Of a stretch of 64,000 bases of DNA, positions 34,402-46,190 are shown in pieces; the stretch's first letter is position 1; every line of letters starts with the position of its first letter. Source of the stretch: Escherichia coli (GTDB lineage: Bacteria > Pseudomonadota > Gammaproteobacteria > Enterobacterales > Enterobacteriaceae); NCBI RefSeq assembly GCF_030013595.1, contig NZ_CP122768.1. The stretch is one strand, 5' to 3'. Below the pieces are notes generated by a model. It was not told the origin of the DNA. It saw nothing but the letters and a program-made list of their open reading frames with translations, and did not search any database. Position numbers and translations under genes: made by a program.

Positions 34402-35397
34402 TCAGGCCAGCACACCAATCGCCAGTGCGCGATCGATAAAACGAAATATCAGCTCCAGCTGGGAGCCATACTTCTCTTCAAATGCCACGGTATCCGCATG
34501 CAGTTCGTCGTGGTGTTTTCTGCACAAAGGCAACACAAAAAGGTCATGCGCTTTTGTACCCATTCCACCCTGACCATGGCCTATCAGATGATGCGGATCA
34601 TCAGCTGGCTTTCCACAACATGCACACGGCTGTGTCTTAACCCAGCGCGTGTACTTTTCATTAACCCAGCGGCGACGTTTTGGGCGTAACATAAAAGACT
34701 CCGGCGACTCCGGATCCACTTTCAGCGCCAGCACCTTTTTCGCCTTATCCTGGATGATGCTGGTGGCAGGAACCGAAGGCACAAGGTCACTTTCCCGGGT
34801 AACAGACGGCACAACAGGCTTCGGTAATCTCAGTGCCTTACGGGCTGCACTTTCCGGTAAGGCATCCGCCAGATCATTACGAATCAGCCACCAGCACAGT
34901 TCCGGCATTGTCACAACGTGACTGTCATCAAAACCGAGATCCCGACGCACAACAGACAACACCCAGCGGGCACAGTTATCCGTTGCCATTGATTCCAGCC
35001 GTTCCGTGAACTGATCGCGCAGCTGGTTATCGCAGTGCCAGCACAGACGGATTGCACCCGGAGCGTGTCGCATTGTGGTCATGTTCTCGCTGTGCCAGTC
35101 GGAATGAGGCCACTGGCAGCCTTTTTCACGAAGTAACCAGCTTTCAAGACATTCCACGCCACCAGCACGACGGATCACTGCCTCATTGCGGAACACGGCC
35201 CGAACGGCAGGATCATCCGCCAGCGGTTGTGATGCCGCCGGAACGGCACCACTGGCGAAAGATGAATAACGCTCCGGCTCAGGCTCCAGCAGGACACGCC
35301 CCTGCATAAACAGGGGCATCAGCTCTGAACCTGGCCTGAACAATACGATCCCCATACGCGGGGCAATTTCAGGGGTCAGTAGTGCTCTCACGGTCAC
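34402..35397 (-). CDS. DUF968 / NinG-like protein with HNH-type Cys-His motif
   Basis: C-terminal [25 protein letters not shown] motif; GTG start at 35397 (alternative ATG further in). Confidence 0.65.
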
Positions 35398-35398
35398 C

Positions 35399-36208
35399 TC
35401 AATGAACGGTATCGAGCAGCTTTAACAGCTCAGGGAATCGGGATTCGAAGAAATGCGGCTGTGTCTCGCGCGGATTTGCGGGACTGGTGATGTTCTTGCC
35501 GAACATGCAACCTTTCGCTGTCAGCGACCAGAATTTTTTGATGTTGTTAATCGCTGTACGGCTGTATCGTTCGCGCTGCTCGACGATCCCCAGTTTCACC
35601 ATCTGGTGATATGCCTGATTAGCCGTCAGGCGTATACCATACTGTTTCAGCAGTGCACTCAGTGACAGTGTCGGGCGACTTGAGCCATCGTGTGCATCAG
35701 CAGGAGCATCAATGGCATAGCGCGGTGCCAGATTCGGTAAGCCAACAGCCTCCTGGAGTTTCTGACAGGCACCAAGCACTGAAGAGTTAGACAGGTTTAA
35801 CTCCCGGCGCATAAAGTCCAGCAGGATCACGCCAGCCTGCATCTTGTCAGCAGCCTGTCCGGATAATTTTTCCGGTGCGCTGGTTACCATATCGAAAGTA
35901 CGGATCACCTTCAGATGGAATGACGGGCTGATCCACATTGCATAGGCATACACCAGTTCCTTGCAGACATACGTTCCCCGTTCATTTCCCCCATGAATCA
36001 CACTCACCGGGTCAACACCCAAATTCTGGGTGTTGGTCAATTCATGAACAAGCTCAACAGTTTGTTGGCTGGAAAGAAACTTTCCCGGCTCCTTGGTTCT
36101 GGCATTTGCACCAGATGCTACTGCTGCGCGATGCAGATCGTTCAGGCTGTAACGCCCATAAGCATCACGACGAACTTCAATACCATCAATGACCATCAGA
36201 TTATTCAT
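35399..36208 (-). CDS. KilA-N domain protein (antirepressor-like)
   Basis: N-terminal KilA-N-like region (MNNLMVIDGIEVRRDAYGRYSLNDLHRAA). Confidence 0.7.
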   Translation of the reverse strand: MNNLMVIDGIEVRRDAYGRYSLNDLHRAAVASGANARTKEPGKFLSSQQTVELVHELTNTQNLGVDPVSVIHGGNERGTYVCKELVYAYAMWISPSFHLKVIRTFDMVTSAPEKLSGQAADKMQAGVILLDFMRRELNLSNSSVLGACQKLQEAVGLPNLAPRYAIDAPADAHDGSSRPTLSLSALLKQYGIRLTANQAYHQMVKLGIVEQRERYSRTAINNIKKFWSLTAKGCMFGKNITSPANPRETQPHFFESRFPELLKLLDTVH

Positions 36209-36227
36209 ACTTCGTTTCTCCTCTTGA

Positions 36228-36617
36228 TCAGGCGGCTGCACCCGCCGTTTTCTCGTACTTACTGATAGTGATCTCGACCTTCCCTTTCGGGATAACCGGT
36301 CCCCACTCCACCAGCATTCTTTTCACCTGACTGTCGTCTTCCCACACACCCGCATGGGTCAGGGCGTCAAACAGCGCCTTGTTATAGTTGTCCAGATCGC
36401 GGATCCGGTTATCCGGAGGAAACAACACGATCTCCACTGAAGCAGGTGCCGACGTTGGTTTCGGCAGACGACGTAACTGCTCAACTATTGCTGCGCACGC
36501 CGCGCTCTGGAATTTGCGCCCCGCTGCGCTTATCAGACTCTTACCAGCAAACGCCCCTTTGTTGGGGTGTCGCCAGTACGTGTTCACGCTGGGCGGGAAA
36601 GGCAAGATCAGCTTCAT
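36228..36617 (-). CDS. rusA: Holliday junction resolvase RusA
   Basis: 129 aa, RusA-like sequence with conserved acidic residues. Confidence 0.85.
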   Translation of the reverse strand: MKLILPFPPSVNTYWRHPNKGAFAGKSLISAAGRKFQSAACAAIVEQLRRLPKPTSAPASVEIVLFPPDNRIRDLDNYNKALFDALTHAGVWEDDSQVKRMLVEWGPVIPKGKVEITISKYEKTAGAAA

Positions 36618-36940
36618 ACTTTCAGGCCCCTCTCATGTAACCAGTGGGCTGCACGCAGCCTGGCGTTTTCCTCACCGGCAAGCAGTGCGCGGATAATCCC
36701 GACCGCCTCGCTGTCGTCGTCCTTCACCGCGGTATGAAGAGTTATCCCCCGGGCCACGCCACGCTTTATCGTGATGACGCCTTTTTTCTCCAGTGCGCGA
36801 AGATGCTCCACCGCTGCATTCACCGAACGGTATCCCAGCATGGTTGCCACCTCCTGATTGGTTGGCGGAAAGCCACGTTCTTGCTGGTAAGAAATCAGCA
36901 TATCCAGCACCTGCTGCTGGCATTGAGTTAACGTCGTCAT
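36614..36940 (-). CDS. LexA N-terminal DNA-binding-domain-like protein (no peptidase domain)
   Basis: 108 aa; resembles the LexA winged-HTH domain (QQQVLDMLISYQQERGFPPTNQEVATMLGYRSVNAAVEHLRALEKKGVI). Confidence 0.6.
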   Translation of the reverse strand: MTTLTQCQQQVLDMLISYQQERGFPPTNQEVATMLGYRSVNAAVEHLRALEKKGVITIKRGVARGITLHTAVKDDDSEAVGIIRALLAGEENARLRAAHWLHERGLKV

Positions 36941-37590
36941 GCCGCCATCTCCCTGACCAGTTTTTCCGCCTGCTGGCGAACCTGCGCCAGAAAGGCCTCA
37001 CCACATGCCTCAAGTTCATCGCGCCCGATGTAGCTGATTGCCGGTCCCTTCCAGGTCTTGTCGAAAACAGCAATAGCACCAGCGAAGAAAGCGCCTGTCG
37101 GCACCTGCTTCTCGTCCTTCGGGATAAACCAGGCTGGCAGTTCAAAACCAATACGCCCGCGAATAAAAGCAATATGGTCTGCATCTTCCGGCCACCACAC
37201 TTCGCTGGTGGCAGCTTTGATCAGGAAAACATAGCGCCCGCCTTTATCACGCATGGCACTGGCATGCTTCATGATGTAACGCATGCCGGTGATGTATTGC
37301 CCCTCATGCTGACTGGCGCGGCTGTACGGGGGATTACCAAAGGCAGCACCTTTAAGCTCCGCAAGACGTTCTGACCAGTCATGCGCCAGCGCGTTGTCTT
37401 CCGCAGTGTAATACGCGGCGCATTTGGCGTTATCACCATCAGTAAACAGATCCAGAACAAACGGGCCAAACAGGGTGTTAATTCCCCAGAAAATGTTGTC
37501 CGGCGTGCGCCACTGATCGCCCACTTCCTTCAGTTCATGGGCTGGTTTGTTCCGCAGCTCCACCAGCGCCTGGCAATATTTATTACTCAT
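36937..37590 (-). CDS. Phage N6-adenine DNA methyltransferase (Dam-like)
   Basis: 217 aa from MSNKYCQ; phage Dam-family features (NPPY motif); no adjacent restriction gene. Confidence 0.7.
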   Translation of the reverse strand: MSNKYCQALVELRNKPAHELKEVGDQWRTPDNIFWGINTLFGPFVLDLFTDGDNAKCAAYYTAEDNALAHDWSERLAELKGAAFGNPPYSRASQHEGQYITGMRYIMKHASAMRDKGGRYVFLIKAATSEVWWPEDADHIAFIRGRIGFELPAWFIPKDEKQVPTGAFFAGAIAVFDKTWKGPAISYIGRDELEACGEAFLAQVRQQAEKLVREMAA

Positions 37591-38078
37591 TAAGCCCCCA
37601 CGTAATTCCCTGACAGATACCACTCTTCACCCGATGCAGCGCGCTTGCTGCTTTTCCGTAAACACCGCTCACGACGCGCAAGAAAATTGTTTCGCTCTTG
37701 CTGGGAGTGGCTTTCACGGAATGCCGCCATCCACACCGTTGCAGCACGACGGTATAAGCCCCTGGACTCCAGTTCTTCCGCCTGGCGGGTCAGGCACAAA
37801 ATAACCCGGGGATCGTTAGTGCCGACATAGAAATTGCGCACAGGTCTGGATTCACGAACTGGTTGCGGTTCCGGCTCCTGCGGTATCTCAGTCAGCCGCG
37901 GGAAATGTCTGCGTGTATCCCCTTCACAACGGTGAGCCACACGCCCACTCTGACGTAACTTGCTTGCTGACTGCAGAACGCGCTGTCGTGAGTAACCTGC
38001 AAAAGCATCCGCAATGTCTCCGGAAGTACACCCCGGATGGGCTTCAATGAATTTCTGAACGTCATTCAAAAGACTCAT
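37590..38078 (-). CDS. Hypothetical nin-region protein
   Basis: 162 aa from ATG at 38078; directly follows the replication initiator; no Walker motif. Confidence 0.5.
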   Translation of the reverse strand: MSLLNDVQKFIEAHPGCTSGDIADAFAGYSRQRVLQSASKLRQSGRVAHRCEGDTRRHFPRLTEIPQEPEPQPVRESRPVRNFYVGTNDPRVILCLTRQAEELESRGLYRRAATVWMAAFRESHSQQERNNFLARRERCLRKSSKRAASGEEWYLSGNYVGA

Positions 38079-38080
38079 GA

Positions 38081-39022
38081 TCACCCCCTGAATCCTGCCG
38101 GGATCTGGCTGTAGTCCACGTTGTCGTAACTGGCTTTGAAGTACGGGTCTTCGCGTTTTTCGGTGTACGTGCTGACGGACGGCGATAAGCGCAGGGAAAG
38201 CTCATCCCATTTTTCCCGCAGCTTCGACGGGCTGAGCACGTTACGGCACCAGAACGGATCGCGACTGACGCGGCTGTACATCTCGCAGATTTGTTTATGA
38301 GTACGACCATCCTGCACACACATCAGGCGAATTTCGTTTGCCCAGGCTGTCCAGTTCGGTTCTTTGGGACGAACCACCTCGCCGTCACATTCGGCGGCAT
38401 GCTCGTACAGGGCGATGATTTTTTTCCAGAGCCACTGTGCGCAGGTCAAATCATCCTGCGTCCCCCACTGGCGCTTTTTAGGGCTGAATACAACCGCATC
38501 AGGATGGCGAGTTAAAAAATCCTGTTCAGCCGTCTGCGTGTCCGGTTGCGAAGAGTCCGGACGAGAAGGTTTTTTATCTGACGGATCATGTTTTGATTTT
38601 ACTGACGGATCCCCGCCAGATTCTGACGGGTGAAAACCCGCTTTTTTGCCAGATTTCGACGCATCAAATTTTGACGGGTCAGATTTTGATGCGTCAGATT
38701 TTGACGGGTCAGAATCTGACAGTTGAGAAAATGCCGCTGCCTGAAGCTTCGCAACGTTAAGCTGATAAACATTCGACGCATTGCGGTTACCCTGGCGACG
38801 CGCCTTACGCGTTAACCAGCCTTCTGCTTCCAGCCGTGCGATAGCCGTTCTGACGGTACTCATCCCCGCGCCAATCTGGCGGGCAATGGTTTCAATCGAT
38901 GGCCAGCACACACCTTCGTCATTACTGAAATCAGCCAGGCGGGCCATAATTGCCACGCTGGATAATTTCATGCCTGACGCTGCGCAACCATCCCATACAT
39001 AGCCGGTTAATTTAGTGCTCAT
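38081..39022 (-). CDS. Replication initiator protein (O-like)
   Basis: 313 aa; N-terminal HTH; repeat-encoded linker (DPSKSDASKSDPSKFDASKS) spanning the iterons. Confidence 0.75.
   Translation of the reverse strand: MSTKLTGYVWDGCAASGMKLSSVAIMARLADFSNDEGVCWPSIETIARQIGAGMSTVRTAIARLEAEGWLTRKARRQGNRNASNVYQLNVAKLQAAAFSQLSDSDPSKSDASKSDPSKFDASKSGKKAGFHPSESGGDPSVKSKHDPSDKKPSRPDSSQPDTQTAEQDFLTRHPDAVVFSPKKRQWGTQDDLTCAQWLWKKIIALYEHAAECDGEVVRPKEPNWTAWANEIRLMCVQDGRTHKQICEMYSRVSRDPFWCRNVLSPSKLREKWDELSLRLSPSVSTYTEKREDPYFKASYDNVDYSQIPAGFRG
38575..38725. repeat. Replication origin iterons inside the initiator gene
   Basis: Tandem and inverted copies of ATTTTGACGGGTCAGA / ATTTTGATGCGTCAGA. Confidence 0.7.
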
Positions 39023-39031
39023 GACCGACCT

Positions 39032-39370
39032 CTATTTCCCTGAATTTACGACGAAACTGTTCGAGCGGACTGAAGCACTCATGCTCATAGCCTTCGCGGA
39101 GGTAGATAACCCGTTGTGTTTCCGGTTCCCAACGAATGACTCTGACGGGCACTCCGTAGTGATCTTTGAACCAGCGGTTAACTTGTCGCAAAGGACTGTC
39201 TCCTTCTGCCGGTTGAAATCCCCCACAGCCCACTCTGCAAAGCTGTGGGTTACAATTTCCCTGTCACCTGGTACATTCACTGCATAGCAATATTCCACCT
39301 TCGCTTTTCCACCCGGTACAGGAAGCGCAATCAGTTGCGAGCGACGGTAGTGTGTTGTTAAACTGTTCAT
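39032..39370 (-). CDS. YmfM-like protein
   Basis: 112-aa ORF between the YmfL-like gene and the replication gene; the C-terminal half is low-complexity and overlaps an alternative ORF. Confidence 0.45.
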
Positions 39371-39936
39371 GCGTTAGTTTCTCCACAACCAGAAGCAATC
39401 GACGCCACGACGCCCGGAGCTGCACACTCGCGGGCGTCATTACTTTCTGAAATGCAAAAGATTTTGTAGACCAGTGCTGCATGCTCCTGCAGCTTCGAAA
39501 TTGAGAGATACAGCTCGTCGTTAATTGCTGTCTTCTCATGCGGTTCCACTACACCGTCTTCGATTGCTGAACGAATCTGTTTTGAATAACTGCCGATCTG
39601 TTCAATGACTTCCAGCAGACGCTGGTTAATATCGGCGTTGTCCACATCCTCGACGTCAGGAAGCGACACAAAGACGCCATTTGCAGACTGCGCCACAGCA
39701 TCAGCAATGAAGTGAGTGCCACCAGCACGCTGTAAAACCATTGCCCATCCCAGCGGGAAAATCTGATCGCCATCTGCACGAAGGCGGTTGAATAAAGCGT
39801 TTTCTGTTACATCGAGCCAGTCAGCCGCTTCAGCGTAACCACCCGGCAACGCCGCGATAGTTTTTCTGACAGCTTTCACGTACCACTCAGGCTGTTTTTC
39901 TATTTTCCAGTGATGCTTACCCACGATTAGCCTCAT
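39367..39936 (-). CDS. YmfL-like early regulatory protein (cII position)
   Basis: 189-aa ORF immediately downstream of cro. Confidence 0.55.
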
Positions 39937-39967
39937 CGTTCTGTGGTTAAAAATTGAAAGTGTTCTG

Positions 39968-40168
39968 CTAATCTTTCGGATAGATATCCGGTCTTAAGTC
40001 AGATTTCGTAATTGCACCTGACGTGCATTGCTCAAGTTTTTTAGCCAGCACAAAACTGGCTTTTTTATAGCCATTGAAAACCAGCCGTAAGTAGCCAGGA
40101 GTTGAGCCAACTTTTCCGGCCAACTCGCCCTGCTGTTCTTTGGTTAAAGAGTCCCAATACGCTTTCAT
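39968..40168 (-). CDS. cro: Cro-like repressor
   Basis: 66 aa from ATG at 40168, divergent from cI across the operator region. Confidence 0.7.
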   Translation of the reverse strand: MKAYWDSLTKEQQGELAGKVGSTPGYLRLVFNGYKKASFVLAKKLEQCTSGAITKSDLRPDIYPKD

Positions 40169-40171
40169 ACA

Positions 40172-40243
40172 ATATGTACCTCCGGTGTACATATTACATG
40201 ATTGAAATGAACCTTCAAGACACTTGTACCTTAACGGTACAAG
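40172..40243. promoter_or_regulatory. OR operator region (pR / pRM) with two palindromic operators
   Basis: atatgtac-N7-gtacatat at 40172-40194 and cttgtacc-ttaac-ggtacaag at 40223-40243, between the divergent cro and cI starts. Confidence 0.7.
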
Positions 40244-40258
40244 GGTTTTAATTTCGTT

Positions 40259-40933
40259 ATGAAAACAATCCATGACATCCGGCGGTCTAACGCCCGAAAA
40301 CTGAGAGATGGTGTTGGAGGGAATTCTTCCTTTGCCACTATGATTGATCGCGAGCCAACCCAGACCAGCAGGTTTATGGGAGATGGTGCTACTAAAAATA
40401 TCGGTGACAGCATGGCACGACACATCGAAAAATGTTTCGACCTGCCTGTCGGATGGCTCGATCAAGAACACCAGACAACGAACATCACAAAAAAACCTGA
40501 TGTTTCAATCACTAATAAACAAATCACATTAGTCCCTGTCATATCATGGGTACAGGCCGGAGCATGGAAAGAAGTTGGATATTCTGAGGTTGATTTGAGC
40601 ACAGCAGAAACGTATCCCTGCCCTGTACCCTGTGGGGAAATGACTTATATCTTGCGGGTGATAGGTGATTCAATGATTGATGAGTACCGCCCGGGAGACA
40701 TGATTTTTGTCGATCCTGAAGTACCTGCCTGCCACGGTGACGACGTTATTGCATTGATGCACGATACAGGTGAAACCACCTTCAAAAGGTTGATAGAAGA
40801 TGGGACACAGCGTTATCTCAAAGCGTTAAACCCAAACTGGCCTGAGCCTTACATTAAGATCAACGGTAATTGCTCTATAATTGGAACTGTGATTTTCTCA
40901 GGAAAACCAAGAAGATACAAAATCAAAGCCTAA
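40259..40933 (+). CDS. cI: CI-like repressor (LexA-like S24 peptidase family, e14 YmfK type)
   Basis: 224 aa; N-terminal HTH and C-terminal S24 autopeptidase domain (VIGDSM Ser motif). Confidence 0.85.
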   Translation: MKTIHDIRRSNARKLRDGVGGNSSFATMIDREPTQTSRFMGDGATKNIGDSMARHIEKCFDLPVGWLDQEHQTTNITKKPDVSITNKQITLVPVISWVQAGAWKEVGYSEVDLSTAETYPCPVPCGEMTYILRVIGDSMIDEYRPGDMIFVDPEVPACHGDDVIALMHDTGETTFKRLIEDGTQRYLKALNPNWPEPYIKINGNCSIIGTVIFSGKPRRYKIKA

Positions 40934-40945
40934 TCAATGTTTATG

Positions 40946-40969
40946 AACCTGCTTCGGCAGGTTTTTTTA
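40946..40969 (+). terminator. Intrinsic terminator after cI
   Basis: Hairpin aacctgc-ttcg-gcaggtt followed by ttttttt. Confidence 0.75.
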
Positions 40970-40972
40970 TAC

Positions 40973-41000
40973 TTGACAATGTACCCACGAGATACATAAT
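40973..41000 (+). promoter_or_regulatory. Candidate pL-like sigma70 promoter with operator-like TGTACCC repeats
   Basis: TTGACA, 16-nt spacer, CATAAT; two direct copies of AATGTACCCA overlapping it. Confidence 0.45.
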
Positions 41001-41083
41001 GTACCCAAGAGAAACAACAAACAGGCAGGACGCCCACGAAGTAGCCGCCTGGGGCATATGAAGTCCAGGATGATTCGTTAGCA

Positions 41084-41108
41084 ACAAAAAAGCGCCCTAC
41101 AGGACGCT
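41084..41108 (-). terminator. Intrinsic terminator downstream of the immunity-region gene
   Basis: Hairpin agcgccct-ac-aggacgct with a U-run on the minus strand. Confidence 0.5.
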
Positions 41109-41147
41109 TAGCTCTTTAACAATCTGGATATCCACAACAGTAGTAAT

Positions 41148-41639
41148 CTACAGATTGCCGTTAAGTTTTCTGGACAACTCCTCAATGGATGGAGGCGATA
41201 CGTAATCCGGATTTTTATTCATCAGAAACTTATTTTCACAGTGGAGGCACCTGCTTTTATGAAAAAGCTCATCTTCGCTAACCGGGAATGGTTGAAGTAT
41301 CGATACTATCTTTTGTCCAAAACATTTTGGGCAAAGATGCATGGTTATGCTGCCACCGTTCACGATTACCTCCTTCGAGTATACAAAAGTACCCGACTCA
41401 AGTTGGTTAAGGATATAGCCTTCCGTCTGAGCCTCAAAGTTTTCGAATTCTGCAATTTTAGCTTTGAGAGAAGCATTTATTTCTTGATAAGAGCCCACCA
41501 GTTCAACGAGAGACACGCATTCGCGCTGAATAGACGCAAGCTTTGAGTTCAGCTCACCAATAGCCGCATTTACTTCAGCTTGAGTTTTTGCCTCGTTCAT
41601 TAGTTTTGCAATCTGGGCTGTTTCACGAATAGCCGTCAT
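41148..41639 (-). CDS. Coiled-coil / zinc-ribbon protein of unknown function (rex-equivalent position)
   Basis: 163 aa from ATG at 41639; predicted N-terminal coiled coil; C-terminal CPKC..CLHC; opposite strand to cI and the early operon. Confidence 0.6.
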   Translation of the reverse strand: MTAIRETAQIAKLMNEAKTQAEVNAAIGELNSKLASIQRECVSLVELVGSYQEINASLKAKIAEFENFEAQTEGYILNQLESGTFVYSKEVIVNGGSITMHLCPKCFGQKIVSILQPFPVSEDELFHKSRCLHCENKFLMNKNPDYVSPPSIEELSRKLNGNL

Positions 41640-41677
41640 TGCTGCCGTTAATTCAGCGATCACATTGAATACTCTTA

Positions 41678-41723
41678 TTGTTGTTGGGGATATCCAGATT
41701 AACCGAATCCTTGTTGTTGGGGA
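41678..41723. repeat. Two 13-bp direct repeats TTGTTGTTGGGGA, 33 bp apart
   Basis: Exact copies at 41678-41690 and 41711-41723, 39-85 bp upstream of the start codon at 41639. Confidence 0.8.
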
Positions 41724-41950
41724 ATAACCAGGTCCACCTCGCCTGATGTGGCTAAAAGCAGGCACATAACAGCTAAGTATTTTCAACCAGAGAGAATCCT
41801 TAGCGTTGTGGTGAATGCGGCTCAGCGCACGCGGGTTAAGGTTGAGGCTGACAGTCGACCTTCTGTGGATACCCACCCGCCTGGTGTGCAACCTTCGCCA
41901 GGCACCGGGAGGCACCCGGCACCACAACTTTATGCTGTGTGTAGTCCTGG

Positions 41951-41996
41951 CGGTACCAGTTTGTACCCTTGCTTCCGGCTGGTACCGTCCTTTTTT
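41951..41996 (+). terminator. Intrinsic terminator in the early leader (tL-like)
   Basis: 9-bp stem cggtaccag / ctggtaccg with 19-nt loop, followed by tttttt; the stem contains operator-like GGTACC/TGTACC motifs. Confidence 0.55.
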
Positions 41997-42085
41997 GCAA
42001 AACAGAGAAGAGCATCACCGGACGACGGGCTCATAACCCAATCCATCCGGGCGGCTGCCACCGCAGGTGTTCTTCTCTGTTTTGT
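41997..42085 (+). ncRNA. Long stem-loop element in the early-operon 5' leader
   Basis: 13-bp perfect inverted repeat aaaacagagaaga / tcttctctgtttt (41999-42011, 42071-42083), extendable with G-U pairs, enclosing a 59-nt GC-rich interior; 49 nt upstream of the yfdP-like start. Confidence 0.4.
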
Positions 42086-42133
42086 GGAGAAACCAACCGA
42101 CCTTGCAGGGTCGATATGATGAGGAGCAGCAAA

Positions 42134-42496
42134 ATGGCTAGCGAACGCAGTACTGATGTGCAGGCATTTATCGGGGAGCTGGACGGCGGCGTATTTGAAA
42201 CCAAAATCGGCGCAGTTCTCAGTGAGGTCGCTTCCGGTGTGATGAACACGAAAACCAAAGGGAAGGTCTCACTCAATCTGGAAATCGAACCGTTTGATGA
42301 GAACCGTGTGAAAATCAAACACAAACTCTCATATGTTCGCCCAACTAACCGCGGGAAAATTTCCGAAGAAGACACCACCGAAACGCCGATGTATGTCAAT
42401 CGCGGTGGTCGCCTGACTATTCTGCAGGAAGACCAGGGACAATTACTGACTCTTGCCGGTGAACCTGACGGAAAACTCCGCGCAGCAGGTCGTTAA
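42134..42496 (+). CDS. YfdP-like early protein
   Basis: 120 aa from ATG at 42134 with AGGAG RBS; CPS-53 yfdP-like. Confidence 0.75.
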   Translation: MASERSTDVQAFIGELDGGVFETKIGAVLSEVASGVMNTKTKGKVSLNLEIEPFDENRVKIKHKLSYVRPTNRGKISEEDTTETPMYVNRGGRLTILQEDQGQLLTLAGEPDGKLRAAGR

Positions 42497-42561
42497 TATC
42501 GTTCGTAATAAACTGATTATTTATCTCATCACTGAATATCTTTATATAGTGAGGACTTATT

Positions 42562-43386
42562 ATGTCTCAGAACTTAGACGCAACCGCAATTAATCAAATC
42601 CATGCCCTTATTTCTGCTCAGAGTGTTAATGAAATTATCAGTAAGATTGGTGCCGATGCTGTGGCATTGCCTGAGAATTTCCGCATTCATGATCTGGAAA
42701 AATTTAATTTAAATCGCTTCCGTTTCCGTGGTGCACTTTCCACTGCCAGCATCGATGATTTTACCCGTTATTCTAAAGATCTTGCAGATGAAGGCACCCG
42801 CTGCTTTATCGATGCCGATAATATGCGTGCCGTCAGTGTGCTTAACCTGGGTACTATTGATGAGCCAGGTCACGCAGATAACACTGCCACTCTCAAACTG
42901 AAAAAGACAGCACCGTTCTCTGCTCTGTTGTCTGTTAACGGCGAGCGTAACTCCCAGAAGTCACTGGCAGAATGGATCGAAGACTGGGCCGACTACCTTG
43001 TGGGCTTTGATGCTAATGGTGACGCCATTCAAGCAACAAAAGCGGCTGCGGCAGTCCGTAAAATCACGATTGAAGCAAACCATACCGCTGATTTTGAAGA
43101 TAATGACTTCAGCGGCAAACGCTCCCTGATGGAGTCTGTCGAAGCGAAGACCAAAGACATTATGCCAGTGGCATTTGAATTTAAATGCGTTCCGTTTGAA
43201 GGTCTGAAAGAACGTCCGTTTAAATTACGCCTCAGCATTATCACTGGCGATCGTCCTGTACTGGTTCTGCGCATTATTCAGCTGGAAGCGGTGCAGGAAG
43301 AAATGGCTAACGAATTTCGTGATCTGCTTGTTGAGAAATTCAAAGACAGCAAAGTAGAAACCTTTATTGGTACTTTCACCGCCTGA
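42562..43386 (+). CDS. YfdQ-like protein (DUF2303)
   Basis: 274-aa ORF, CPS-53 yfdQ-like. Confidence 0.8.
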
Positions 43387-43513
43387 TTTCATTACTGCAA
43401 ATGCCCCTGCGGGGGCATTTATGGAAACGTAATTAACTCAATAATCACCGGATGGTGAGGGCTTCCTTTTACCAGAATTCAGCGCGGTGCAGTGCATATA
43501 CGTGGAGAACAAA

Positions 43514-44050
43514 ATGTCATTTATTAAAACTTTTTCCGGGAAGCATTTTTATTATGACAAGATAAATAAAGACGACATCGATATTAACGATATCGCGGTT
43601 TCCCTTTCAAATATCTGTCGCTTTGCCGGTCATCTTTCGCACTTCTACAGCGTCGCCCAACATGCGGTTCTTTGCAGCCAGCTGGTGCCGCAGGAATTTG
43701 CTTTTGAAGCGTTAATGCATGATGCAACAGAAGCGTATTGCCAGGACATTCCCGCACCACTGAAACGCCTTCTTCCTGACTATAAACGGATGGAAGAAAA
43801 AATAGACGCCGTAATCCGTGAGAAATACGGGTTACCCCCAGTTATGAGTACACCCGTGAAATATGCCGATCTCATCATGCTGGCAACCGAACGCCGCGAT
43901 CTCGGGCTTGATGATGGCTCTTTCTGGCCTGTACTGGAAGGCATCCCGGCAACAGAGATGTTCAACGTGATTCCACTGGCACCGGGTCATGCCTACGGGA
44001 TGTTTATGGAACGTTTTAACGATTTATCGGAGTTACGCAAATGCGCATGA
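43514..44050 (+). CDS. HD-domain phosphohydrolase (YfdR-like)
   Basis: 178 aa from MSFIKTF; HD motif (ALMHDATEAY). Confidence 0.8.
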   Translation: MSFIKTFSGKHFYYDKINKDDIDINDIAVSLSNICRFAGHLSHFYSVAQHAVLCSQLVPQEFAFEALMHDATEAYCQDIPAPLKRLLPDYKRMEEKIDAVIREKYGLPPVMSTPVKYADLIMLATERRDLGLDDGSFWPVLEGIPATEMFNVIPLAPGHAYGMFMERFNDLSELRKCA

Positions 44051-44403
44051 ATGTTTTCGAAATGGAAGGGTTTCTTCGCGGGAAATGTGTACCGCGAGAT
44101 CTGAAAGTGAACGAAACAAATGCTGAGTACCTGTTACGTAAATTCGACGCGCTTGAAGCTAAATGTGCGGCACTGGAAAACAAAATAATACCAGTGTCAG
44201 CTGAACTGCCACCAGCAAATGAAAGTGTTCTGTTATTTGATGCTAACGGAGAAGGCTGGCTGATTGGCTGGCGTTCTCTCTGGTACACCTGGGGACAAAA
44301 AGAAACCGGAGAATGGCAGTGGACATTTCAGGTCGGGGACCTTGAAAACGTCAATATCACTCACTGGGCAGTAATGCCAAAAGCACCGGAGGCTGGAGCA
44401 TAA
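44041..44403 (+). CDS. YfdS-like protein with C-terminal DUF551
   Basis: 120-aa ORF overlapping the yfdR-like stop. Confidence 0.7.
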   Translation: MRMNVFEMEGFLRGKCVPRDLKVNETNAEYLLRKFDALEAKCAALENKIIPVSAELPPANESVLLFDANGEGWLIGWRSLWYTWGQKETGEWQWTFQVGDLENVNITHWAVMPKAPEAGA

Positions 44404-44708
44404 TGACCACATTTACCAATAAAGAACTGATTAAAGAAATCAAAGAACGAATCAGCAGCCTAGAGGTTCGAGACGATATTGAGCGCCGTGCTTATGAAAT
44501 CGCACTCGTATCTCTGGAAGTAGAGCCAGATGAACGCGAAGCCTATGAATTATTCATGGAAAAGCGTTTCGGTGACTTAGTAGATCGTCGGAGAGTAAAA
44601 AACGGCGATAACGAATACATGGCATGGGATATGACTCTCGGTTGGATCGTCTGGCAGCAACGAGCTGGTATCCATTTTTCAACAATGACACAGCAAGAGG
44701 TGAAATAA
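44403..44708 (+). CDS. YfdT-like protein
   Basis: 101-aa ORF. Confidence 0.7.
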   Translation: MTTFTNKELIKEIKERISSLEVRDDIERRAYEIALVSLEVEPDEREAYELFMEKRFGDLVDRRRVKNGDNEYMAWDMTLGWIVWQQRAGIHFSTMTQQEVK

Positions 44709-45079
44709 TGGAGCCATACAGCCTCACACTCGATGAGGCCTGTCAGTTTCTTAAGATATCCAGACCAACCGCCACCAACTGGATACGAACAGGCCGCCTA
44801 CAGGCAACACGTAAAGATCCAACCAAGCCAAAATCTCCTTACCTCACAACACGGCAAGCTTGCATTGCGGCGCTTCAGTCTCCGCTGCATACTGTCCAGG
44901 TGAGCGCGGGTGATGGCATAACAGAGGAAAGAAAATGTCACTCTTCCGCAGAAATGAAATATGGTATGCCTCGTATTCGCTCCCGGGCGGGAAACGAATT
45001 AAGGAATCTCTTGGCACAAAGGACAAGCGGCAAGCTCAGGAGTTGCACGACAAGCGAAAAGCAGAACTCTGGCGAGTAG
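44708..45079 (+). CDS. xis: Putative excisionase (Xis)
   Basis: ATG at 44708 overlapping the upstream stop (TAATG); N-terminal HTH-like region ([31 protein letters not shown]); overlaps the int start out of frame; the 3' end is uncertain. Confidence 0.5.
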
Positions 45080-46098
45080 AAAAGCTAGGGGATTTACCTG
45101 ATGTCACTTTTGAAGAGGCCTGCCTAAGATGGCTTGAGGAAAAAGCTGATAAAAAATCTCTCGATTCAGATAAAAGCCGGATTGAGTTCTGGCTTGAACA
45201 TTTTGAGGGTATAAGGCTTAAAGATATCTCGGAGGCAAAGATTTACTCTGCTGTAAGCAGAATGCATAACAGAAAGACGAAAGAAATATGGAAACAGAAA
45301 GTTCAGGCCGCCATCAGGAAAGGTAAAGAACCGCCTGTTTATGAACCAAAGCCAGTATCAACTCAGACAAAGGCAAAGCATCTTGCCATGATAAAGGCCA
45401 TTCTCCGTGCTGCAGAACGCGACTGGAAGTGGCTGGAAAAAGCGCCTGTCATCAAGATACCAGCGGTCAGAAACAAGCGAGTCAGATGGCTGGAAAAGGA
45501 GGAAGCAAAACGCCTTATTGATGAGTGCCCCGAACCACTGAAATCTGTCGTCAAGTTTGCGCTGGCAACTGGTCTGAGAAAGTCGAACATCATAAATCTG
45601 GAATGGCAACAAATCGACATGCAGCGACGAGTTGCCTGGGTGAATCCAGAAGAGAGCAAATCAAACCGCGCCATTGGTGTGGCGCTGAACGATACCGCCT
45701 GTAAAGTGTTGCGTGATCAAATAGGCAAGCATCACAAATGGGTGTTTGTACATACCAAGGCGGCTAAGCGAGCAGATGGAACATCAACGCCTGCGGTCAG
45801 GAAGATGCGCATCGACAGCAAGACATCATGGCTATCAGCTTGTCGTCGTGCAGGAATTGAAGATTTCCGTTTCCATGACCTCAGACACACCTGGGCAAGC
45901 TGGCTGATCCAGTCAGGCGTCCCATTATCTGTGCTTCAGGAAATGGGCGGATGGGAGTCCATAGAAATGGTTCGTAGGTATGCTCACCTTGCGCCTAATC
46001 ATTTGACAGAGCATGCAAGGAAAATAGACGACATTTTTGGTGATAATGTCCCAAATATGTCCCACTGTGGAATTATGGAGGATATAAAGAAGGCGTAA
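44935..46098 (+). CDS. int: Tyrosine integrase (DLP12 IntD type)
   Basis: 387 aa; C-terminal catalytic region with HDLRHT..Y; ends 16 bp from argU. Confidence 0.9.
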
Positions 46099-46113: not shown

Positions 46114-46190
46114 TGGCGCGCCCTGCAGGATTCGAACCTGCGGCCCACGACTTAGAAGGTCGTTGCTCTATCCAACTGAGCTAAGGGCGC
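46114..46190 (-). tRNA. argU: tRNA-Arg (UCU) argU
   Basis: Reverse complement gcgcccttagctcagttggatagagcaacgaccttctaagtcgtgggccgcaggttcgaatcctgcagggcgcgcca is a cloverleaf with anticodon TCT and terminal CCA. Confidence 0.9.

Follow-up and report, generated by a model that had tools for sequence, protein, structure and literature searches.

An intact yfdP-yfdT early module behind a predicted repressor-controlled promoter region in a complete lambdoid prophage of Escherichia coli

Comparison with K-12 identified the five consecutive early genes shown here as a complete and expressible copy of the known yfdP-yfdQ-yfdR-yfdS-yfdT module, carried by a complete lambdoid prophage, and we think it quite probable that this known module sits in a pL-type operon and acts in host take-over through the binding of DnaA by YfdR. 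The prophage occupies positions 856-46112 of the window, by which we mean the whole 64-kb stretch of DNA that was analysed, and it is collinear with PhiR49_1, a phage that has been isolated; over the early 9.9 kb the two are 99.1% identical (Table 1). A preliminary description had matched the genes to the CPS-53 yfdP-yfdT cluster by order and approximate size, a match that proved closer than claimed, as the protein lengths are identical and the identities range from 97.0 to 99.4%. Global alignment with the equally long MG1655 proteins gave 118/120 identical residues for YfdP (98.3%), 270/274 for YfdQ (98.5%), 177/178 for YfdR (99.4%), 119/120 for YfdS (99.2%) and 98/101 for YfdT (97.0%), so that the pairwise alignment with K-12 yfdPQRST, which the description had proposed as a check, found strong similarity. 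The DNA from 42115 to 44770 aligns without gaps to NC_000913 2473585-2476240 (97.7% over 2,656 bp, far beyond chance), and in a 99.9%-identical strain RefSeq names the five genes yfdP, yfdQ, yfdR, "phage protein" and yfdT.

Table 1. Features of the early-left region, with positions in the window.
Feature	Positions	Strand	Details
CI-type repressor (YmfK-like, LexA/S24 peptidase domain)	40259-40933	+	Pfam Peptidase_S24, E=1.5e-26; RefSeq "ymfK LexA family protein"
pL-like promoter	40973-41016	+	TTGACA-16-CATAAT, 11/12; promoter scan
STnc100-like prophage sRNA / leader segment	41775-41998	+	ends in hairpin + U6
long RNA hairpin, yfdP leader	41997-42085	+	18-bp stem, branched apex; just upstream of yfdP
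yfdP	42134-42496	+	120 aa; first operon gene; phrog_204, E=1e-49; PF27127 among precomputed matches
yfdQ	42562-43386	+	274 aa; DUF2303 family; PF10065, E=4.9e-92; phrog_210
yfdR	43514-44050	+	178 aa; HD-domain 5'-deoxynucleotidase; phrog_318, E=5e-110
yfdS	44041-44403	+	120 aa; short N-terminal segment and DUF551 domain; phrog_583
Chi site within yfdS	44209-44216	-	one of six in virion top-strand orientation
yfdT	44403-44708	+	101 aa; without defined domain; phrog_660
P22-type excisionase xis	44708-45079	+	phrog_2907, E=1.1e-45, 116/117 positions; HTH_17
tyrosine integrase, IntD/P22 type	44935-46098	+	last operon gene; Pfam Phage_integrase, E=5.5e-47; RefSeq intD
tRNA-Arg(UCU) argU	46114-46190	-	ARAGORN, Rfam tRNA; attachment site, prophage right end

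The module is already known, because it is frequent in E. coli genomes (1,935 of 5,426 complete genomes, ~36%) and in many sequenced phages; its genes have names in RefSeq, there is published work on it in K-12, and a 2025 lambdoid survey discusses it, so that our finding mostly confirms textbook-level annotation. The details that are new are the coupling of yfdP and yfdQ across unrelated phages, the independence of yfdR, and a covarying leader hairpin.

The K-12 prophage CPS-53 (KplE1) shares these five genes, with order, orientation and lengths unchanged, and its early-right genes yfdM/N/O also match the window (37324-38789), but it lacks the intervening 3.3 kb (38790-42114) that hold the initiator N-terminus, a cII-like gene, cro, cI, pL, a moron and the structured leader. 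K-12 fuses window position 38789 straight to 42115, with only TA microhomology at the junction. There the module is followed by torI and attR at argW, whereas in the window it leads into the P22-type xis-int at argU, and K-12 ypdJ is a 5' remnant of the P22-type xis. CPS-53 is a deletion derivative of such a prophage, and the prophage described here shows its form before loss of the immunity region. The K-12 locus, a cluster without promoter region in a heavily deleted prophage, whose deletion has no replication phenotype (Noguchi and Katayama, 2016, PMC4776307), might imply that these genes are decaying, functionless cryptic-prophage DNA. We regard that as very improbable: none of the five ORFs is truncated here, and the prophage that carries them is collinear with a phage that has been isolated; thousands of genomes, and plaque-forming phages such as SfV, SfIV, mEp460, cdtI and Kati, keep the module at 95% conservation or more; and in phages of Vibrio, Xanthomonas and Acinetobacter the yfdP-yfdQ pair persists at identities as low as ~35-40%.

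The spacings along yfdP-yfdQ-yfdR-yfdS-yfdT-xis are 65, 127, -10, -1 and -1 nt, and this tight spacing and overlap indicate that yfdP to xis form one operon. Each of the five module genes is preceded by a Shine-Dalgarno-like sequence, and no plus-strand terminator beyond chance expectation was predicted inside the module. The excisionase gene is translationally coupled to yfdT, starting at its stop codon, and overlaps int by 145 nt. For yfdR, a longer GTG ORF starting at 43487 is also possible.

Upstream lies a repressor gene whose PhiR49_1 counterpart is annotated cI, followed by a pL-like promoter that is overlapped by two 17-bp operator-like sites in direct repeat (40980-40996 and 41000-41016). 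The motif TGTAC-N8-TACA occurs exactly in the 64-kb window only at 40175, 40225 and 40980, with one mismatch at 41000, and these sites sit on both sides of cI. This arrangement suggests that pL controls the module. The leader between pL and yfdP is 1.1 kb long and holds an antisense moron and a terminator-like hairpin, so that either read-through or another promoter would be required.

Two structured elements were found in this leader. The first, ending in a hairpin with z=-3.7, matched the Rfam family STnc100 (RF02076) over the full model length with 40.3 bits (E=2.7e-6), under the gathering score of 47, and the homologous stretch of ST64B also matched STnc100 (35.1 bits). The second is the long hairpin directly before yfdP, with a predicted dG of -51.1 kcal/mol and z=-6.5, the stem of which was 99.4% paired across 43 distinct sequences, with compensatory changes at four pairs. 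Of 113 contigs with its apical motif, 97 encode a YfdP homologue immediately downstream, and the apex occurs only once in the window. The put sites of HK022 were considered as a model for this hairpin and set aside, blastn-short having found no similarity anywhere in HK022. In phages without an N-type antiterminator, the hairpin might serve as a new kind of element for read-through or processing.

The module would then be the promoter-proximal part of an early-left operon running on into xis and int. In a lysogen the CI-type repressor should hold it off, and SOS-induced repressor cleavage, or infection, would allow transcription from pL through the structured leader into yfdP and on to int. 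YfdR, together with YfdQ and YfdS or YfdT, would be expected to lower initiation at oriC, and the natural role seems most likely to be host take-over by blocking DnaA-dependent recruitment of DnaB at oriC. The early-right genes comprise an O-like initiator, regulators, a methylase, RusA, an HNH/DUF968 protein and Q; this O-like/DnaD-like initiator is the only replication gene in the prophage, with no helicase or loader, so that such a block may spare host replication proteins for the phage.

The preliminary description had mentioned a report that YfdR binds DnaA and inhibits chromosomal initiation when over-expressed. Such a report exists, but in it YfdR alone was insufficient for inhibition: with the K-12 genes, multicopy yfdQ and yfdR plus either yfdS or yfdT inhibited oriC initiation, and YfdR bound DnaA domain I at Phe46, the docking residue of DiaA and DnaB (Noguchi and Katayama, 2016, PMC4776307). 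From their 97-99% identity to the K-12 proteins, we infer that YfdR of this prophage would likewise bind DnaA and that its yfdQ and yfdR with yfdS or yfdT would inhibit initiation at oriC. No DnaA boxes were found in the region from 40 to 46 kb, so any effect would be protein-mediated, and titration of DnaA by this DNA was ruled out on the same ground. The Phe46 (Phe49) patch of DnaA domain I is also the target of B. subtilis SirA and of DiaA, and lambda P is likewise a phage protein able to inhibit host initiation (PMC4776307), but lambda P binds domain III and is itself a helicase loader, whereas YfdR is an HD phosphohydrolase. Neither sequence nor fold relates YfdR to lambda P, SirA or DiaA/Dps, and unlike them it needs YfdQ and YfdS or YfdT in vivo.

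YfdR resembles the YfbR-like HD 5'-deoxynucleotidases, including YfbR and Atu1052 (PDB 2gz4; YfdR residues 18-175, E=3.7e-14), in its HD fold and H...HD...D metal-binding motif; it has H50 and H69-D70, and its residues 117-118 are a conserved "AD" that lines up with Atu1052. YfbR itself is only distantly related, and YfdR falls under the curated cut-offs of Pfam PF12917 (YfbR-like, 24.1 vs 25.9 bits), PF13023 (16.8 vs 22.5) and NCBIfam NF003009 (19.9 vs 122); it belongs to a phage-specific branch (phrog_318) and not to the YfbR equivalog. It is possible, though we think it the weaker explanation, that YfdR is mainly a nucleotide-pool or anti-defence enzyme acting on dNMPs or another phosphorylated nucleotide, and that over-expression alone accounts for the binding of DnaA and the inhibition of initiation. 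Members of the HD phosphohydrolase family are common in lytic and jumbo phages of Bacillus, Caulobacter, Pseudomonas and Rhizobium, which are unrelated and have no yfdP or yfdQ, and YfdR homologues were found in 324 records, mostly of phages without the pair; the catalytic H...HD motif is kept in YfdR, and the PHROG label is "deoxyribonucleoside 5' monophosphate phosphatase". The K-12 phenotype came from multicopy plasmids only, a yfdQRST deletion was without effect, and the authors allow that an artefact is possible (PMC4776307). [quoted passage not shown] Inhibition further depended on yfdQ and on yfdS or yfdT, a requirement not expected of a simple pool effect, and PADLOC gave no matches for any of the six proteins; an NCBIfam scan returned only weak YfbR and excisionase matches. 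Host take-over through DnaA is therefore the reading we prefer, and because the module here has kept its promoter, which is predicted to be under repressor control, and the phage is nearly the same as one that has been isolated, this prophage is a better system than K-12 multicopy plasmids in which to ask whether the YfdR-DnaA interaction is relevant at native expression.

The genes yfdP and yfdQ behave as a unit. Homologues were located by tblastn on phage records and by contig look-ups. There are 184 phage records for yfdP and 180 for yfdQ, with the same taxon counts, and the two were adjacent wherever inspected. The pair is conserved from lambdoid prophages to phages of Vibrio, Xanthomonas, Thalassomonas and Acinetobacter, and it keeps company with phage genes for recombination and replication, often ERF, YqaJ and SSB. 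YfdQ covers nearly all of PF10065 (residues 7-272 on model positions 2-269 of 269), a family for which we counted 1,467 clusters at 50% identity (E<=0.001). The pair could form a phage complex of a new kind that acts on DNA, perhaps by modulating the initiation of replication or replication that depends on recombination, with the hairpin before it as a new read-through or processing element, a suggestion that we make only tentatively; the same prophage could help to address the role of this widely conserved pair.

A narrower proposal, that yfdP-yfdQ, with or without yfdR, provides an unrecognised recombination or DNA-end function that replaces Red/RecET or interfaces with host RecBCD, appears unlikely. 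The pair does sit at the genome position of a Rec module; it shares one operon with an ERF annealing protein, a YqaJ exonuclease and SSB in Vibrio 44E38.1, Thalassomonas BA3 and Xanthomonas Alcala phages, and in Burkholderia phage JC1 it lies four genes from RecT and YqaJ. [quoted passage not shown] This structure is ~40% identical to the YfdQ of the window and 98.9% identical to a protein of Xanthomonas phage MET23-P3; we found no paper describing it. No PDB entry contains the YfdP homologue of MET23-P3, and none is nearly identical to the capsid protein of this group of phages, which makes a virion reconstruction an unlikely source of 9o7m. YfdQ showed neither sequence nor fold similarity to known phage annealing proteins (RecT/Redbeta, ERF, Rad52-like), and its fold resembled nothing in the libraries searched (to 2026-04-08, with 9o7m absent). 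Since the pair coexists with complete Rec modules, including that of ArgO145 (Zheng et al., 2025, PMC12315714), it is not their replacement, and in phage LLS, which has the cluster, RecBCD nevertheless enhances growth and the genome is Chi-rich (PMC12315714). The early region of the prophage is itself Chi-enriched. YfdQ as a cryptic recombinase was considered and rejected on these grounds.

The earlier statement that the early region has no Red or RecET genes is borne out: all ORFs from cI to int are accounted for, and none is an annealing protein, exonuclease, SSB or anti-RecBCD gene, leaving the nin-region RusA resolvase as the only recombination-related gene among those on the early-right side. 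Chi sites number six in the active and two in the inactive orientation, all in the 16.8-kb early/lysis half, where 0.28 would be expected and 0 of 500 shuffles reached six, and the 28-kb late half has none; the density in the host flank is similar (5 in 17.8 kb). Lambdoid phages of the "no Rec module / high Chi" class typically have at least 8 active and at most 6 inactive Chi sites, concentrated near the right end (Zheng et al., 2025, PMC12315714). Those of the LLS type (LLS gp37-39, ST64B sb35-37, phiNP) have yfdP-yfdQ-yfdR directly after cI/pL, as here, and likewise carry no SSAP, exonuclease or anti-RecBCD genes and are Chi-enriched toward the right arm; among them, the comparison of the structured leader covered ST64B and phiNP, both of which share it with this prophage. 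The prophage fits this class only in part, however, with six active Chi sites against the typical eight or more. Its lambda-like late region has none, which gives it the look of a mosaic in which an early arm of the LLS type is joined to a late arm free of Chi. Protein identity to the LLS type is only 55-68%.

Mosaicism is also evident within the module. The early-left operons of PhiR49_1, SfV (orf28-32), SfIV, mEp460, cdtI and Stx2c phages carry the whole module at 95.5-99.8% identity, and in many phages of this group yfdT and/or the DUF551 half of yfdS are swapped for Ea22/EaE-type genes. The DUF551 match of YfdS lies at the cut-off (PF04448, E=2.9e-4, 22.1 bits vs 22), and YfdT had no DUF551 match even at E<=10. 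Shared sequence as an explanation for the interchangeability of YfdS and YfdT was discarded, since it came to just a non-significant Trp-rich match (E=0.31). The break-points fall at query positions 2077, 2292 and 2428, that is, after yfdR, within yfdS and after yfdS. The module is composite, with yfdP-yfdQ as a tightly coupled pair and yfdR as an independent add-on, and yfdS and yfdT are variable small genes of the exo-xis-region type.

Pairwise protein alignment against CPS-53 of E. coli K-12 MG1655 confirmed the module as the yfdP-yfdQ-yfdR-yfdS-yfdT cluster, which the preliminary description had recognized from gene order and approximate size. Its coordinates were exact, all five protein lengths were equal to those of the K-12 counterparts, and identities ranged from 97.0 to 99.4%. 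The DNA of window 42115-44770 aligned with K-12 2473585-2476240 at 97.7% identity over 2,656 bp, ungapped, an agreement that, judged from these alignments, cannot be chance; RefSeq gene names in a 99.9%-identical strain also agree with the yfd names. The module had been described before and is very widespread: of 5,426 complete genomes of E. coli, 1,935 carry 80% or more of it, and parts of it match 436 phage records, in 38 of which the match spans no less than 80% of the module.

The element bearing the module is a complete lambdoid prophage, integrated at the tRNA-Arg(UCU) gene argU (46114-46190), which is the DLP12 site, and adjoining fimZ and the sfm fimbrial genes. It is collinear over window ~856-46112 with the sequenced phage PhiR49_1 (45,270 bp), which is 99.1% identical across the early 9.9 kb and 99.8% across the module. 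Overlaps of 10, 1 and 1 nt join successive genes from yfdR through xis, every gene has a Shine-Dalgarno sequence, and the whole is one early-left operon. The excisionase gene, which overlaps int by 145 nt, is full length here, whereas RefSeq marks only a 66-nt pseudogene fragment in the 99.9%-identical strain, and in PhiR49_1 it is unannotated.

Features of the early region, in gene order along the window + strand, and operons with the yfdP-yfdQ pair in other phages
Feature	Sequence	Position	Strand	Remarks
Replication module	window	37590-39022	-	O-like/DnaD-like initiator, 313 aa, then PerC-like activator (YfdN)
cro-like gene	window		-	before cI
Operator-like 17-bp sites	window	40175-40191, 40225-40241, 40980-40996, 41000-41016		TGTACC-N5-GGTACA type; both sides of cI
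cI-like S24 repressor	window	40259-40933	+	
Leader	window			1.2 kb, between cI and yfdP
phrog_1244 gene	window	41148-41663	-	171 aa; coiled-coil N-terminus, four-cysteine CxxC...CxxC C-terminus
STnc100-like prophage sRNA segment	window	41775-41998	+	full-length match; ends in hairpin plus U6
Long RNA hairpin	window	41997-42085	+	49 nt upstream of yfdP; dG -51 kcal/mol, z -6.5
yfdP	window	42134-42496	+	120 aa; 98.3% identity to K-12 protein
yfdQ	window	42562-43386	+	274 aa; 98.5%
yfdR	window	43514-44050	+	178 aa; 99.4%
yfdS	window	44041-44403	+	120 aa; 99.2%
yfdT	window	44403-44708	+	101 aa; 97.0%
P22-type excisionase (xis)	window	44708-45079	+	123 aa, full length; phrog_2907, 116/117 positions
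int	window	44935-46098	+	last in order, after xis
YfdP-YfdQ with ERF and YqaJ (plus RNase T, SSB)	Vibrio phage 44E38.1	1896-6883		
YfdP-YfdQ with ERF and YqaJ (plus RNase T, SSB)	Xanthomonas phage Alcala	22570-28097		
YfdP-YfdQ with ERF and YqaJ (plus RNase T, SSB)	Thalassomonas phage BA3	2510-6252		

Unlike CPS-53, the window shows the yfd cluster in its original, regulated setting. In K-12, yfdM/N/O correspond to window 37324-38789 and yfdP-ypdJ to window 42115-44770, and these two blocks, separated in the window, abut at a junction with TA microhomology only, which indicates that CPS-53 is a deletion derivative that has lost 3.3 kb. The deletion is clean, with window 38790-42114 missing near NC_000913 2473585, and it removed the 5' part of the O-like initiator gene, the DUF4222 gene, the cII-like gene, cro and cI, together with the early-left promoter (pL) region, the phrog_1244 gene and the structured leader. 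Because the initiator N-terminus is deleted, K-12 yfdO is a truncated initiator gene. At the right end only the first 62 nt of xis have K-12 homology, and K-12 ypdJ is what is left of the 5' end of this gene.

A terminator-like hairpin lies directly 3' of the cI stop codon and is followed by a near-consensus sigma-70-like promoter, TTGACA-16-CATAAT (40973-41000), the only strong one in the region, which is overlapped by two 19-nt direct repeats and by the left pair of operator-like sites; the other pair lies between cro and cI. Exact TGTAC-N8-TACA occurs in the 64 kb only at 40175, 40225 and 40980, and the site at 41000 has one mismatch. The sites flanking cI are arranged as OR and OL operators would be, suggesting that the operon is off in the lysogen and on when the LexA-like repressor is cleaved.

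The leader contains several elements in addition to the promoter. The phrog_1244 gene, between pL and yfdP, looks like a moron and possibly has an exclusion function; it had no PADLOC match, is flanked by 26-nt inverted repeats (41121-41146 and 41675-41700, 85% complementary), and has no counterpart gene at this position in ST64B and phiNP, two lambdoid phages with a related cluster. The STnc100 match is sub-threshold (40.3 bits against a gathering score of 47). The homologous stretch of ST64B also matches STnc100; RefSeq records this segment as a "frameshifted hypothetical protein". The long hairpin ahead of yfdP is kept in ST64B and phiNP, although YfdP is only ~60% identical there. Its apical motif was found in at least 120 viral contigs, with a YfdP homologue ~85 nt downstream in 97 of the 113 that had enough flank. 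Across 43 distinct sequences, pairing in the 18-bp stem reached 99.4% (slid controls, 37-62%), and compensatory changes at four stem pairs filled 36 cells against 10.7 in shuffles, with 0 of 500 shuffles reaching 36; the apex is invariant because it was the search pattern. The hairpin had no Rfam counterpart (no family at E≤1). The phage has no recognizable N gene, and the hairpin may serve for RNase III cleavage or for read-through. HK022 is the classic phage with RNA-based antitermination, and the hairpin showed no sequence similarity to it.

Every ORF from cI to int was accounted for. The early-right operon encodes a cII-like activator, a DUF4222 protein, an O-like/DnaD-like initiator, a PerC-like activator (YfdN), a methylase, a LexA-like repressor, RusA, a KilA-N regulator, an HNH/DUF968 protein and Q. 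RusA is the only recombination-related gene in the two early operons; the proposed absence of Red and RecET genes held. The replication module appears to comprise just the initiator and the PerC-like activator. No helicase or helicase loader of the P, DnaC or DnaB type was found among the early-right genes, so these functions must be supplied by the host. According to a 2025 survey of lambdoid phages, early-left operons often contain a yfdP/yfdQ/HD-phosphatase cluster, and LLS, ST64B and phiNP carry it without a recombination module; its authors considered a hidden recombination system unlikely because phage ArgO145 has both (PMC12315714).

Published work on YfdR bears out the preliminary description. 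[quoted passage not shown] No DnaA boxes were found in window 40-46 kb, as would fit an effect exerted through proteins. The sequence itself shows intact ORFs, the YfdR HD motif (H50, H69-D70), the operon structure and the operators flanking the repressor. Induction from pL might express a host take-over function, in which DnaA-dependent DnaB recruitment would be blocked at oriC; a phage that supplies an initiator and nothing more would profit from this. As the main alternative to this take-over, the real role of YfdR may be nucleotide hydrolysis, with DnaA binding incidental; the HD motif is present, and deletion of the cluster had no phenotype, the authors of that study noting that the effect might be an over-expression artefact (PMC4776307).

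The module itself is composite. In tblastn searches of 50,697 phage records, YfdQ matched 184 and YfdP 180, with nearly equal counts per host genus, and yfdP lay directly before yfdQ wherever inspected: in Thalassomonas BA3, Vibrio 44E38.1, Xanthomonas Alcala, Acinetobacter fJoAci01, TL-2011c and four metagenomic contexts (YfdQ identity 38-39%). YfdR homologues occurred in 324 records, most without the pair, in phages of Bacillus, Caulobacter, Pseudomonas, Rhizobium and others, and DNA-level similarity to the module ends after yfdR, mid-yfdS or after yfdS. These counts and break-points indicate that yfdP-yfdQ is a coupled pair and yfdR a separate add-on; yfdS and yfdT are variable small genes of the lambda exo-xis region type.

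In three non-lambdoid lineages the pair shares an operon with an ERF annealing protein, a YqaJ exonuclease and SSB, and Burkholderia phage JC1, whose DUF2303 protein has been reported as virion-associated, has RecT and YqaJ near the pair. The only solved YfdQ relative found by sequence is PDB 9o7m ("YfdQ Protein", 36 chains), a protein of a Xanthomonas phage group (98.9% to MET23-P3); YfdP is not among its chains, it seems not to represent a virion reconstruction, it is absent from the fold libraries, and no paper on it was found in the searchable literature. In short, members of the YfdQ family build a large assembly and keep company with DNA-transaction genes. The family showed no known recombinase fold, and a role of the pair as a replacement for annealing proteins was rejected since it co-occurs with them.

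The survey also predicted that phages without a recombination module are rich in Chi (PMC12315714). Chi (GCTGGTGG) occurs in prophage 856-46112 six times on the virion top strand and twice on the other, although six is below the at least eight typical of the no-Rec class and adjoining host DNA has a similar density. All eight, within window 34759-44216, lie in the 16.8-kb early/lysis half (expectation 0.28, with 0 of 500 shuffles reaching six), and the 28-kb lambda-like late half has zero despite its higher G+C content. The same uneven pattern was seen in PhiR49_1, which suggests a mosaic of a Chi-rich, LLS-like early arm and a Chi-free, lambda-like late arm.
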